Source of the DNA: Escherichia phage moha
Sequence record: MN850590.1
Length of the DNA stretch: 64,000 bases
Direction: 5' to 3' (one strand)
Shown here: positions 31,468-36,576 of the stretch, piece by piece
Position numbering within the stretch: the stretch's first letter is position 1
Layout: every line of letters begins with the position of its first letter
Notes under the pieces: generated by a model
What the model was told of the DNA's origin: nothing
Seen by the model: only the letters and a program-made list of their open reading frames with translations
Database searches by the model: none
Position numbers and translations under genes: made by a program

Positions 31468-31941
31468 ATGTTATTATCTGGCAAATTATACAAAGAAGAA
31501 AAACAAAAATTTTATGATGCACAGAATGGTAAGTGTCCTATTTGCCACCGTGAATTAGACTCTGATGTTCAAGGTAACCATCTTGACCACGACCACGAAT
31601 TAAACGGGCCAAAAGCCGGTAGAGTTCGTGGATTACTCTGTAATCTGTGCAACGCAGCAGAAGGCCAAATGAAGCATAAGTTCAATCGTTCCGGTCTTAA
31701 AGGACGTGATGTTGACTACCTCGAATGGCTTGAAGCTCTTCTTGCTTATTTGAAACAAGATTATTCTGATAATAATATCCATCCTAATTTTGTTCCAGAC
31801 AAAACTAAAGAGTTCTCAAGACTAGGTAAAGAGGAAATGATGGCTGAGATGCTTCAAAGAGGATTTGAATATAATGAATCTGACACCAAAACACAGTTAA
31901 TAGCTTCATTTAAGAAGCAACTTAGAAAGAGTTTAAAATGA
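31468..31941 (+). CDS. 49: endonuclease VII (Holliday junction resolvase) gp49
   Basis: 157 aa; CPICHREL..HLDHDHELNG...CNLCN zinc/His-Me region as in T4 endo VII. Confidence 0.9.
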   Translation: MLLSGKLYKEEKQKFYDAQNGKCPICHRELDSDVQGNHLDHDHELNGPKAGRVRGLLCNLCNAAEGQMKHKFNRSGLKGRDVDYLEWLEALLAYLKQDYSDNNIHPNFVPDKTKEFSRLGKEEMMAEMLQRGFEYNESDTKTQLIASFKKQLRKSLK

Positions 31942-33755
31942 CAATTGAAAAAGAAATTGAAGGATTGATTCATAAAACTAATAAAGACCTTTTAAACGAG
32001 AATGCTAATAAAGATTCTCGTGTTTTTCCAACTCAACGGGACCTTATGGCTGGTATTGTGTCTAAACACATTGCCAAAAATATGGTCCCGTCTTTTATTA
32101 TGAAAGCGCATGAAAGCGGAATTATCCATTTCCACGATATTGATTATTCCCCTGCTCTTCCGTTTACTAATTGCTGTTTAGTCGATTTAAAGGGGATGCT
32201 TGAGAACGGATTTAAATTAGGCAATGCTCAAATTGAAACGCCTAAATCGATTGGTGTTGCTACTGCAATTATGGCACAAATTACTGCACAAGTTGCTTCC
32301 CATCAATACGGCGGAACGACTTTTGCTAATGTAGATAAAGTACTTTCTCCTTATGTTAAACGCACCTATGCAAAACATATTGAGGATGCAGAAAAATGGC
32401 AAATCGCTGATGCGTTGAATTATGCTCAATCTAAAACAGAAAAAGATGTATACGATGCATTCCAAGCTTATGAATATGAAGTAAATACTCTTTTTAGTTC
32501 AAACGGGCAAACGCCTTTTGTAACAATTACATTTGGTACGGGAACTGACTGGACTGAACGAATGATTCAGAAAGCAATTCTGAAAAATCGTATTAAAGGT
32601 CTTGGTCGTGATGGGATAACTCCTATTTTTCCTAAACTTGTTATGTTTGTTGAAGAAGGTGTTAATCTTTATAAAGATGATCCAAACTATGATATTAAAC
32701 AACTTGCGTTAGAATGTGCAAGCAAAAGAATGTATCCTGACATTATTTCGGTTAAGAATAATAAAGCTATTACCGGCTCATCTATTCCTGTTTCTCCAAT
32801 GGGTTGTCGTAGTTTCTTGAGCGTATGGAAAGATTCGACTGGTAATGAAATTCTTGATGGACGTAATAATCTTGGTGTTGTAACACTGAATCTTCCTCGT
32901 ATCGCATTAGATTCTTATATTGGAACCCAGTTCAATGAACAGAAATTTGTTGAATTATTCAATGAACGAATGGATTTATGTTTTGAAGCATTGATGTGCA
33001 GAATTAGTTCCTTAAAAGGAGTTAAAGCGACTGTTGCTCCTATTCTTTACCAAGAAGGTGCATTCGGGGTTCGTCTTAAACCTGATGACGACATAATTGA
33101 GTTATTTAAAAACGGTAGAAGTTCAGTGTCTTTAGGGTACATTGGTATTCACGAATTGAATATTCTTGTCGGTCGTGATATTGGGCAAGAAATTTTAACT
33201 AAAATGAATGCTCATCTTAAGCAGTGGACCGAAAGAACTGGATTTGCTTTTAGTTTATATTCTACTCCTGCTGAAAACCTTTGTTATCGCTTCTGTAAAC
33301 TCGATACAGAAAAATATGGAAGCGTAAAAGATGTTACTGATAAAGGCTGGTACACTAATAGTTTCCATGTTTCAGTAGAAGAAAATATTACTCCGTTTGA
33401 AAAGATTTCTCGTGAAGCGCCATATCATTTCATTGCGACAGGTGGTCACATTTCTTACGTTGAACTTCCTGATATGAAAAATAACCTAAAAGGTCTTGAG
33501 GCCGTGTGGGATTATGCTGCACAACATTTAGATTATTTTGGTGTTAATATGCCAGTAGATAAATGTTTTACATGCGGAAGTACCCATGAAATGACTCCTA
33601 CTGAAAACGGATTTGTTTGTTCTATTTGTGGAGAAACTGATCCTAAAAAGATGAACACAATAAGAAGAACATGCGGATATCTTGGAACTCCTAGCGTTGT
33701 TCCATGGAATTTAGGTAAAATGAAAGAAATGGTAAAACGAGTAAAACATGCATAG
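31938..33755 (+). CDS. nrdD: anaerobic ribonucleoside-triphosphate reductase NrdD
   Basis: 605 aa, uninterrupted; C-terminal glycyl radical motif RRTCGYLG and Cys cluster CFTCG..CSICG. Confidence 0.95.
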   Translation: MTIEKEIEGLIHKTNKDLLNENANKDSRVFPTQRDLMAGIVSKHIAKNMVPSFIMKAHESGIIHFHDIDYSPALPFTNCCLVDLKGMLENGFKLGNAQIETPKSIGVATAIMAQITAQVASHQYGGTTFANVDKVLSPYVKRTYAKHIEDAEKWQIADALNYAQSKTEKDVYDAFQAYEYEVNTLFSSNGQTPFVTITFGTGTDWTERMIQKAILKNRIKGLGRDGITPIFPKLVMFVEEGVNLYKDDPNYDIKQLALECASKRMYPDIISVKNNKAITGSSIPVSPMGCRSFLSVWKDSTGNEILDGRNNLGVVTLNLPRIALDSYIGTQFNEQKFVELFNERMDLCFEALMCRISSLKGVKATVAPILYQEGAFGVRLKPDDDIIELFKNGRSSVSLGYIGIHELNILVGRDIGQEILTKMNAHLKQWTERTGFAFSLYSTPAENLCYRFCKLDTEKYGSVKDVTDKGWYTNSFHVSVEENITPFEKISREAPYHFIATGGHISYVELPDMKNNLKGLEAVWDYAAQHLDYFGVNMPVDKCFTCGSTHEMTPTENGFVCSICGETDPKKMNTIRRTCGYLGTPSVVPWNLGKMKEMVKRVKHA

Positions 33756-34578
33756 GTATTATATAATTTATAAAATAACAAATATAATTAATTCAAAGGA
33801 ATATATCGGTGCGCATAGCACCGATAACATAAATGACGGTTATATGGGGTCAGGAACATTGATTCGTGCCGCTTTATTAAAATATGGTAGAAAAAATTTT
33901 AATAAAGAAATTTTACATGTTTTTGATAATGAAAAACAAATGTATGATAAAGAAGCTGAACTTGTAACCGAAGAGTATTGTCTAAAAGAAAATACATATA
34001 ATATTAAACCTGGTGGAAAAGGTGGAACTGCCTATGAACAGACACTTGAACATCGCCGTAAAAATAGTTTAGCAAATAAAGGTAAAAAGAGAACAGAAGA
34101 AACTAAAATAGCTATTTCACGTGCTTTAAAGAAATATAAACGTACGCCAGAGCATCAAGCAAATTTAAATAAAGCCGTAAGCATAGCTATGAAGCGAAAA
34201 GATGTTAGAAGTAAATTAGCTGGAGAGCGGTCTGAGAAAGATAAATTATCTATATCAAACGGTGTTAAAAAATATTACAATTCTTTGAGTGAAGAAGAAC
34301 GCGAACTTCATCGCAAGCGAATTATTGAAGGTAAAAAGAATTCTCCCATGTCATTGGAATCTAGACAAAAGCTTTCAAAAGCTTTAAAAGGGCTTCAAGT
34401 TGGTTCAAAAAATCCAATGTATGGAAAAATTTCTCCAACTAGCAAAACCGTTTCAGTTGACGGTATTAAATATGATTCAATTAAAAAGTGCTCAAATGCC
34501 ATAAAAGTTTCTAGACATCTTATACTAAAACGCTGTAATTCTACTGATGAAGCTTGGAAAAATTGGATATTATTATGA
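33748..34578 (+). CDS. free-standing GIY-YIG homing endonuclease (Seg-like)
   Basis: 276 aa; IIY..(10)..YIGAHS GIY-YIG motif; repeated basic helix motifs in C-terminal half; overlaps nrdD stop by 8 nt. Confidence 0.85.
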   Translation: MHRYYIIYKITNIINSKEYIGAHSTDNINDGYMGSGTLIRAALLKYGRKNFNKEILHVFDNEKQMYDKEAELVTEEYCLKENTYNIKPGGKGGTAYEQTLEHRRKNSLANKGKKRTEETKIAISRALKKYKRTPEHQANLNKAVSIAMKRKDVRSKLAGERSEKDKLSISNGVKKYYNSLSEEERELHRKRIIEGKKNSPMSLESRQKLSKALKGLQVGSKNPMYGKISPTSKTVSVDGIKYDSIKKCSNAIKVSRHLILKRCNSTDEAWKNWILL

Positions 34579-35045
34579 ATTATGATAGATTTTATCCTTG
34601 CGATTTTGTGAATGGCCCTGGTTGCAGGGTCGTTCTTTTCGTTACAGGTTGTTTGCATAAATGCGAAGGGTGTTATAATAAATCAACATGGAATGCTAGA
34701 AATGGTATTCCATTCACCGGAGAGACACTAGAACAATTAATTGAATGTTTGAATAATGATTATATAGAAGGATTGACTATAACCGGAGGTGACCCTCTCT
34801 ATCCTGATAACAGAGATGTGATTCACTCTGTGGTTCAAACTATTAAAAATCTTTATCCCAATAAAAGCATTTGGCTGTGGACAGGATATAAGTTTGAAGA
34901 TATTAAACAGCTAGAAATGCTTAAATATGTTGATGTTATTATTGATGGGAAGTATGAGAAAAATCTTCCGACTAAAAAGCTGTGGCGAGGATCAGATAAT
35001 CAGCGACTTTGGTCAAATACCGATGGGGTGTGGAAACATGATTAA
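34575..35045 (+). CDS. nrdG: anaerobic RNR activating enzyme NrdG (radical SAM)
   Basis: 156 aa from ATG 34575; CLHKCEGC cluster motif. Confidence 0.9.
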   Translation: MNYDRFYPCDFVNGPGCRVVLFVTGCLHKCEGCYNKSTWNARNGIPFTGETLEQLIECLNNDYIEGLTITGGDPLYPDNRDVIHSVVQTIKNLYPNKSIWLWTGYKFEDIKQLEMLKYVDVIIDGKYEKNLPTKKLWRGSDNQRLWSNTDGVWKHD

Positions 35046-35155
35046 ATTGAATTACATTATGGATACTATAAATGATATGATTTTTCGTTTTGGTCCAGAA
35101 TTTTATTCGCAATATAGTTTAATGATTATCAATGCTTAGTTAATTAAGGGTAAAT

Positions 35156-35371
35156 ATGTACAAATTTCGTAAAGGTTTAGCTGATTTTCTTACAACTGTA
35201 ACGTTCTTTTTGTTTATGGCAGTTGGAGCTATTTTTCTTATTCCTTTTACTGGTGTATTTTTCGTGATTAGTTTAATTTCTCCAGAAAAGGGTTTATCCT
35301 CCAGCGAATTCAATGAACGTTTGGACAAAATTACTAATAAACTGAATTCTGTTCTTGATAAAAAGGCTTAA
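35156..35371 (+). CDS. small membrane protein
   Basis: 71 aa. Confidence 0.7.
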   Translation: MYKFRKGLADFLTTVTFFLFMAVGAIFLIPFTGVFFVISLISPEKGLSSSEFNERLDKITNKLNSVLDKKA

Positions 35372-35373
35372 TT

Positions 35374-35691
35374 ATGATTAGTTTTGAGCGGTATGTAGTA
35401 GAGAGTTGGAATGGTTTTGATATGTTCGGTAATGACTATTATTTCTATGAATGTAGTCTGAACCCAAGCTTCTGGGCTGGACGTGAACAAGACCTCGAAG
35501 AAATCAACGCCCGTGCCGATTTGTTAGGTGAACTGCCTACGGTTTATTTTACCTTTGATGAATCCGGCTTCGTTATCCAGGTTTATTTTCCTGAAGAAAA
35601 CTCTGGTGAGGATTCTGTTAATCCTCCTTATTGGGCTTACCAAGGAATTATTTCTCGTGGAACAAAACTCGAACTTAAAGAACAAGATTGA
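35374..35691 (+). CDS. hypothetical protein
   Basis: 105 aa. Confidence 0.7.
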   Translation: MISFERYVVESWNGFDMFGNDYYFYECSLNPSFWAGREQDLEEINARADLLGELPTVYFTFDESGFVIQVYFPEENSGEDSVNPPYWAYQGIISRGTKLELKEQD

Positions 35692-35980
35692 AATTTATGG
35701 CATCCCTGAAGAAGTTGGACGTTGTCCAGGATGTTATACTGTTACAAAACTTTTAAAGGAGCTCAATGCTCCTTATACATTTTATAAAGTCCTCACTAAT
35801 AATGGTAAGATTGAATATGACCGTCCTTTAATCGTATCTCTTGCTAAACGTGCAGGATTCACTTCACTTAATATTCGTTATCCTGTCATATTTTTAAATG
35901 ATAAGAAACAAAAGAATATTGCAGAGTTTAAAAAGTCCTTGATTTCATTAGGATATGACTCTGATATCATAGAAGATTGA
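35657..35980 (+). CDS. nrdH: glutaredoxin-like protein (NrdH-like), start uncertain
   Basis: KIEIYG...CPGCY redoxin motif; only in-frame start near domain is GTG 35657; listed ATG 35528 would overlap upstream gene by 164 nt. Confidence 0.5.
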   Translation: MEQNSNLKNKIEIYGIPEEVGRCPGCYTVTKLLKELNAPYTFYKVLTNNGKIEYDRPLIVSLAKRAGFTSLNIRYPVIFLNDKKQKNIAEFKKSLISLGYDSDIIED

Positions 35981-36004
35981 CCAGGTGCCGCCTGGTCTTC
36001 TTTA
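35978..36004 (+). terminator. terminator-like hairpin
   Basis: GACCAGG-tgccg-CCTGGTC then TTCTTT. Confidence 0.5.
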
Positions 36005-36090
36005 TCTCATTTCTAATATAATCCATTGGAATCTTCACTTCACTATCTCCTTGTGCCCCTCTCAAATCAAAAAAATATTTTCATAAAACA

Positions 36091-36119
36091 GTTTACATCC
36101 TCGATAGATATGTTAAGAT
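36091..36119 (+). promoter_or_regulatory. early promoter
   Basis: -35 GTTTACA / 16 bp / -10 TAAGAT. Confidence 0.45.
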
Positions 36120-36148
36120 TAACACCATCTACCGCAGAGGAAAATAAA

Positions 36149-36331
36149 ATGACAATTGAAGATAAAGAAATTAAGGTTGACCAGTACTATTCTGTCAATG
36201 GTAATGCCATACAGATAACCAGAGTTTCAAGCCTGGATGTTTGGTACCGTTCAATCAAATATCCAGAAATTGGTGAAATGCTTTGTGACCGTGGTATCTT
36301 CTGTTCAATTGCGAAGGAAATTAAGTCATGA
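36149..36331 (+). CDS. hypothetical protein
   Basis: 60 aa from ATG 36149, SD agagga. Confidence 0.6.
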   Translation: MTIEDKEIKVDQYYSVNGNAIQITRVSSLDVWYRSIKYPEIGEMLCDRGIFCSIAKEIKS

Positions 36332-36576
36332 TTAGTTTAGATTCAAAGAAAGTTGTTCTAACCCTTAAAGTTAATGACGAGCGTCCGATATTCATTACCA
36401 TTTCCGATTTGAACGTTGAAATTGCTAATGGCGTTCGTACTTATCAAGCAAATAAAACTCATTGGGATTATATCCCGATGTTGACGCTTACTCAGCGTTT
36501 AGAATCAATCGGTCTTAAAGACCTTTCAGTAAGTGAAGTGAATTTTATCAAACGCGTTGTATCAATCAACCTCTGA
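36328..36576 (+). CDS. hypothetical protein
   Basis: 82 aa; ATGA overlap. Confidence 0.65.
   Translation: MISLDSKKVVLTLKVNDERPIFITISDLNVEIANGVRTYQANKTHWDYIPMLTLTQRLESIGLKDLSVSEVNFIKRVVSINL

Follow-up and report, generated by a model that had tools for sequence, protein, structure and literature searches.

The window (the whole 64,000-nucleotide stretch of Escherichia phage moha DNA that was analysed, record MN850590.1) carries genes of anaerobic ribonucleotide reduction together with a small glutaredoxin-like gene, nrdH, all on the plus strand. nrdD (31938-33755) and nrdG (34575-35045) are followed by a homologue of T4 gene 55.8 (35156-35371), by a gene that we refer to as gene A (35374-35691), and by nrdH (35657-35980), which has a GTG start, 107 codons and a TGA stop at 35978-35980. 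Positions ~35000 to 36400 are 99.6% identical to Shigella phage JK45, which identifies the source as a T4-like coliphage, and share 97-99.4% identity with the other best T4-like coliphages among the matches listed, mostly Mosigvirus. In all, 656 phage records match this region. The order nrdD, nrdG, 55.8, (gene A), nrdH, 55.6 is conserved in JK45, APCEc01, PhAPEC2, T4 and Sf21, as well as in the window.

The 55.8 homologue, the first gene after nrdG, encodes a predicted membrane protein of only 71 aa that belongs to phrog_1930 (E=1.9e-35). It is similar to T4 gp55.8 according to the annotation of PhAPEC2 and Sf21, and the corresponding product of relatives matches PF26812 (Phage_T4_Y04H). Gene A encodes an acidic protein of 105 aa that resembles RB69ORF082c and falls in phrog_2749 (E=1.1e-49), with no Pfam or NCBIfam match. 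On the other side of nrdH, a terminator scan found a terminator-like hairpin, GACCAGGTGCCGCCTGGTC, with a T-rich tail on the plus strand (35979-36007; hairpin 35979-35997). The hairpin begins inside the nrdH stop codon; a terminator is annotated at the same place in PhAPEC2, and another hairpin, GC-rich, occupies the matching position in T4. A consensus scan placed a plus-strand promoter-like site at 36092-36119 (TTTACA, 16 nt, TAAGAT, with TG), 5' of the 55.6 homologue, which starts at ATG 36149 on the same strand. Given the hairpin and the promoter-like site that follows it, nrdH appears, on these consensus scans, to be the last gene of its transcription unit.

Between nrdD and nrdG lies a segH-like gene for a GIY-YIG homing endonuclease of 276 aa (33748-34578, plus strand). 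It begins before nrdD has ended (33755), and its stop codon shares bases with the ATG of nrdG (ATGA, 34575-34578). This known mobile element is ~99% identical to segH of RB3, LZ2 and PP01 and is missing from the closest relatives JK45, APCEc01 and PhAPEC2, and T4 has the HNH gene mobC there. At least 80% query coverage was seen in only 70 of the 844 records that match the gene. In the list of open reading frames, nrdG begins at TTG 34554. Relatives annotate a 156-aa form from the equivalent of ATG 34575 (MNYDRFYP...), which we take as the true start, and this is another case, besides that of nrdH discussed below, of the longest open reading frame over-extending a gene.

A divergent glutaredoxin-like protein

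An earlier note on this DNA had described the redoxin core of the gene as intact, and so it proved: KIEIYGIPEEVGRCPGC is read in the frame 35528-35980, with the redox-active CPGC motif at 35723-35734 on the plus strand (Cys23 and Cys26 of the 107-aa protein). The product belongs to phrog_22 (E=1.2e-15) and is 86% identical to T4 NrdH, both by tblastn over residues 8-107 and in an alignment of the family. Homologues occur in ~1350 phage records. Judged by these alignments, it is the ortholog of T4 NrdH, a small glutaredoxin-like protein of predicted thioredoxin fold, whose gene lies 3' of nrdD and nrdG, the genes of anaerobic ribonucleotide reductase. Its putative glutaredoxin activity rests on the T4 record, which carries the note 'has glutaredoxin activity'.

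The closest solved structure is T4 glutaredoxin (NrdC, formerly 'T4 thioredoxin'; 1AAZ, 1ABA, 1DE1, 1DE2). All 14 sequences of the family alignment have C23, C26 and P76, which align with CVYC and Met-Pro of T4 glutaredoxin. Both proteins have a CxxC after the first beta-strand and a conserved proline before beta-3, although the similarity between them is only distant. The profile of the 14 family members matches 1AAZ over its whole length (E=6.6e-9), with profile position 5 (IEIYG) aligned to residue 2 of the 87-residue chain. The fold would start essentially at IEIYG, so that no long N-terminal leader is needed. NrdH differs from T4 glutaredoxin in having CPGC instead of CVYC, and it has FLNDKKQKNI where classical glutaredoxins have Gly-Gly, as well as an extra acidic C-terminal tail (LGYDSDIIED).

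In Pfam, the 107-aa protein scores 21.0 bits against Glutaredoxin PF00462 (E=3.8e-4) and the 150-aa version of the frame 19.9 bits, both below the gathering threshold of 22.9. Twelve of the 14 family members match the same model at E<=0.01, the best at 9.7e-7. NrdH is, on these profile scores, a divergent relative of PF00462 just below the threshold.

The phage protein has its name in common with bacterial NrdH-redoxin, the reductant of class Ib ribonucleotide reductase in, for example, E. coli, as well as a small thioredoxin fold and an association with ribonucleotide reductase genes. Bacterial NrdH-redoxins are characterized by a C-V/M-Q-C active site and the motif WSGFRP. The moha protein has CPGC instead of C-V/M-Q-C, and it has no tryptophan, so WSGFRP is absent; its neighbours are the class III genes nrdDG, not class Ib genes. 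No NCBIfam match was obtained at E<=0.01, and PDB searches with the single sequence and with the profile returned no chain named NrdH, only T4 glutaredoxin, one Glutaredoxin 1 chain and weak chance matches to myosin light chains. Membership in the bacterial NrdH-redoxin family is not supported by this combination of motif, composition, neighbourhood and database results.

The GTG start of nrdH and the open frame before it

The earlier note had pointed to a gene lacking an ATG near its domain, with the only nearby in-frame start inside the preceding gene. This description is accurate. The nearest in-frame canonical start 5' of the core is GTG 35657-35659, which lies inside the 3' end of gene A (TGA 35689-35691) and gives an overlap of 35 nt. 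No ATG occurs between this codon and the core, the codons being GTG GAA CAA AAC TCG AAC TTA AAG AAC AAG ATT. The same note had offered a long frame from an ATG at 35528 that overlaps gene A by 164 nt. The figure of 164 nt is correct, but the codon at 35528 is GTG (gGTGaac). The first in-frame ATG is at 35558-35560, with an overlap of 134 nt with gene A, and TTG 35555 and GTG 35606 are also in frame.

A Shine-Dalgarno sequence, AAGGAA, is present at 35642-35647 on the plus strand, within the Tyr-Gln-Gly-Ile codons of gene A (context ...CCAAGGAATTATTTCTC-GTG-GAA-CAA-AAC-...). Its predicted duplex with the 3' end of 16S rRNA has an energy of -5.4 kcal/mol, a value equalled or bettered at 8% of window positions, and homologous sites in relatives range from -5.4 to -8.6 kcal/mol. 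The pairing is moderate, and a spacer of 9-10 nt to GTG 35657 is towards the upper end of what is usual. The remaining four in-frame starts (35528, 35555, 35558 and 35606) lack a Shine-Dalgarno sequence, with values of +0.3 to -2.4 kcal/mol.

The comparison with the T4 nrdH start, which the earlier note had called for, is informative. T4 nrdH (NP_049686.1; UniProt P07077, 'NrdH glutaredoxin') is annotated from the homologous GTG, in the context ...AGTAAGGAATAGTT-GTG-AAA-CAA-AAT-AAG-ATT-GAA-GTC-TAT-GGA (protein VKQNKIEVYG...). It has in common with the moha gene the CPGC motif, the GTG with AAGGAA, the place after nrdD, nrdG and 55.8 and before 55.6, and a terminator hairpin directly after the stop. 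T4 differs in lacking gene A, its nrdH following 55.8 directly with the GTG 2 nt past the 55.8 stop, and the moha protein has five more N-terminal residues (VEQNSNLKNK vs VKQNK). With gene A standing between 55.8 and nrdH in the window, the start that is free in T4 is buried 35 nt inside that gene.

The T4 frame is open for only 3 codons ahead of the GTG, which makes this the only canonical start of T4 nrdH. Its predicted N-terminus is (f)M-KQNKIEVYGIPDEVGR, with the peptide MKQNKIEVYGIPDEVGR. In a time-resolved proteome of T4 infection, NrdH (P07077) is among the classified proteins, with early RNA and late protein (PMC9697503). A gene whose sole canonical start is this GTG is thus translated. 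No N-terminal peptide information for NrdH was found there. A search of the literature on the NrdH N-terminus and on initiation-site profiling in T4 or moha found neither a mapped N-terminus nor such a profile for NrdH.

The GTG recurs among relatives. Our sample of about 28-29 related loci comprised T4 and others taken from viral contigs, GenBank phages and public assemblies. All Tequatrovirus, Mosigvirus, Gaprivervirus, Dhakavirus and Kanagawavirus loci in the sample have the homologous GTG, with AAGGA, AAGGAG or GAAGGTGG before it. Two Mosigvirus-type loci that lack gene A (L025 and L026) have a T4-like layout, ...GGCAAGGAATAATT-GTG, again 2 nt past the end of 55.8. Phages less closely related (Jiaodavirus, Karamvirus, Krischvirus, RB16, and Acinetobacter, Proteus and Citrobacter phages) start with ATG, which in all but Karamvirus stands 0-3 residues before IEIYG. 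The GTG with an AAGGA-type Shine-Dalgarno sequence is, among the loci sampled, a property of the T4-like clade only.

GTG starts are annotated in JK45, APCEc01, Sf21, RZ and UP19, and the RefSeq record of phage Sf21 states 'alternate start codon GTG'. JK45, APCEc01, JS09 and Sf21 (Mosigvirus/Tequatrovirus) have DNA 99-100% identical to that of the window and the same annotated GTG and overlap; a C-to-T change in the Sf21-type allele makes gene A two codons shorter and leaves an overlap of 29 nt. The GTG start of nrdH is already known from the T4 reference annotation and from most related phage records. The suggestion that moha uses an unusual start can be set aside: GTG is ordinary for nrdH, and T4 nrdH is annotated with the homologous codon.

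We weighed a longer product, beginning at ATG 35558 (140 aa) or GTG 35528 (150 aa), whose hydrophobic N-terminus (…RILLILLIGL…) might anchor the redoxin in the membrane or serve as its signal peptide. In favour of it, the window and its closest relatives keep the frame open back to 35528, the extension is hydrophobic, and the 140-aa form has been annotated in PhAPEC2, ST2 and 172859UKE1. However, the way in which the extension (35528-35656, plus strand) has evolved speaks strongly against its being coding in the nrdH frame. Substitutions were counted between the window and a Tequatrovirus allele, which are ~85% identical without gaps. Within the extension there are 14, of which 12 are synonymous in the gene A frame and a single one is synonymous in the nrdH frame, the other 13 being non-synonymous there. 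In the remainder of nrdH beyond gene A (35692-35980) the relation is reversed, with 39 of 61 substitutions synonymous in the nrdH frame and 6 in the gene A frame.

Further evidence against the longer product comes from the relatives and from the composition of gene A. A stop codon stands 2 codons 5' of the homologous GTG in Gaprivervirus RZ (L015) and in two loci whose NrdH falls in the 90% cluster of the window's protein (L027 and L028), which cuts the extension to 2 codons; in T4 and the two Mosigvirus-type loci without gene A it is absent altogether. Where an extension does exist, its translations are unrelated between alleles. An open frame of 43 codons is also nothing unusual in this context: 1983 of 5000 synonymous-codon permutations of gene A (40%) had one at least as long. 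None of the possible long starts has a Shine-Dalgarno sequence. The comparative data (substitutions, stops in relatives, Shine-Dalgarno sequences and permutations) essentially refute the long isoform, to which we give almost no credence, and the extension is better regarded as open and non-coding, holding the rejected starts GTG 35528, TTG 35555, ATG 35558 and GTG 35606.

Taken as an annotation-relevant overlap, which was another of the possibilities in the earlier note, the region does deserve attention. PhAPEC2 (NC_024794.1), ST2 (OM982647.1) and vB_EcoM-172859UKE1 carry a 140-aa 'glutaredoxin/NrdH' from the equivalent of ATG 35558. Among exact products in a public protein collection, the 107-aa form occurs on 249 contigs and that of 140 aa on 2, with no instance of the 150-aa form; near-identical 140-aa forms occur in other records besides those 2 contigs. 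The comparison indicates that the 140-aa form is an N-terminal over-extension of the 107-aa protein. The practical consequence is that the over-long entries of PhAPEC2, ST2 and 172859UKE1 should be the 107-aa form; otherwise the matter is one of annotation hygiene.

We are highly confident that nrdH is an ordinary T4-type gene that starts at GTG 35657 and yields a product of 107 aa by direct Shine-Dalgarno initiation. Orthology with T4 nrdH, conservation of the GTG with its Shine-Dalgarno sequence and the non-coding evolution of the extension are all apparent at the level of sequence, and they strongly support direct ribosome initiation at the GTG through the Shine-Dalgarno sequence. In this scenario, ribosomes would bind AAGGAA at 35642-35647 and initiate at GTG 35657, so that the 107-aa NrdH would begin about nine residues before the first beta-strand (IEIYG) and CPGC. 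Both the ribosome-binding site and the GTG lie within the last codons of gene A, whose frame differs from that of nrdH over the 35 nt that the two genes share. The longer frame, open as far back as 35528, is an accident of gene A codon usage and no part of NrdH.

The overlap with gene A

Gene A is under purifying selection in its own frame, with 12-13 of 16-19 substitutions synonymous in 35374-35527, in addition to the excess in 35528-35656 given above. An alignment of six alleles shows a conserved C-terminal motif, W-x-Y-Q/E-G-x-I-S/T-R/C-G. The last 12 codons of the gene contain the nrdH start codon and the first 11 codons of nrdH, and the stretch 35657-35691 (plus strand) can be read from the sequence as GTKLELKEQD* in gene A and fM-EQNSNLKNKI in NrdH. 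Only 1 substitution is found in these 35 nt when the window is compared with the Tequatrovirus allele, vs 14 in the 129 nt upstream and 61 in the 289 nt downstream. This sole change is synonymous in nrdH and turns CAA into TAA in gene A, which becomes two codons shorter.

The presence of gene A between 55.8 and nrdH is polymorphic, even among phages with near-identical nrdH. The alleles of gene A fall into at least two diverged groups (window/Sf21 and phi25-307/RZ/UP19), with a Kanagawavirus form besides. In genomes without gene A, the AAGGAA of nrdH falls in the last codons of 55.8.

The constraint on the overlap bears on two further ways of making the protein, a near-cognate start close to the domain (e.g., ATT 35687) and a +1 frameshift that fuses gene A to NrdH. 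The ATT stands directly before EIYG, and distant homologues begin M-IEIYG; for the fusion, the frame relation of gene A and nrdH fits a +1 shift. However, no Shine-Dalgarno sequence precedes ATT 35687, and the codons that lead from the GTG to IEIYG are constrained as nrdH sequence: the one substitution in the overlap is synonymous in nrdH. Initiation at this codon was rejected on these grounds. Inspection of 35657-35691 revealed no recognisable slippery site, which counts against the frameshift, and NrdH is encoded by a free-standing gene wherever gene A is missing, as in T4, so the fusion was rejected as well. We regard either route as exceedingly improbable.

Translational coupling was another explanation that the earlier note had proposed. 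The GTG would then be used chiefly by ribosomes that finish gene A at TGA 35689-35691 and re-initiate 32 nt upstream, and the amount of NrdH made would depend on gene A being translated and not on independent recruitment through the Shine-Dalgarno sequence. The start is inside gene A in every sampled locus that has this gene, with overlaps of 20, 20, 20, 26, 29 and 35 nt, and such arrangements of overlapping start and stop are typical of coupled phage genes. In addition, a GTG start is weaker than an ATG, and pairing of the Shine-Dalgarno sequence is only moderate. Against this, T4 and the two Mosigvirus-type loci lack gene A and still have this GTG with its Shine-Dalgarno sequence, and backward re-initiation over 32 nt is inefficient in known cases.

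Nor does a stable RNA structure hide the site. Folding of 100 nt around the start gave minimum free energy z-scores of +0.6 for the window, +0.7 for T4 and -0.35 to -1.3 for the other relatives, none of them significant, and obligatory coupling through a start-hiding structure was rejected for the window, T4 and the other relatives alike. Given that the start functions in T4, where gene A is missing, and that no significant structure is predicted, coupling is not needed to explain the locus, and we consider it improbable.

In every sampled locus with gene A, the nrdH GTG is formed by (C/T)GT-GGx codons (Arg or Cys, then Gly), in the window by CGT-GGA (Arg-Gly). An ATG at this position would force His or Tyr into gene A, and GTG may persist for this reason. 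T4 and the two Mosigvirus-type loci keep GTG without gene A, and more distant relatives without gene A use ATG. It is conceivable, though doubtful, that the GTG is not simply a neutral variant: in T4 it would be left over from an ancestral overlap, the other gene having since been deleted, and the overlap, where present, could couple NrdH output to gene A. If correct, the gene A product may work with NrdH or with the anaerobic ribonucleotide reductase. A minor evolutionary point is that a gene that is present in some of these phages and absent from others supplies, in its own last codons, the ribosome-binding site and start codon of its neighbour.
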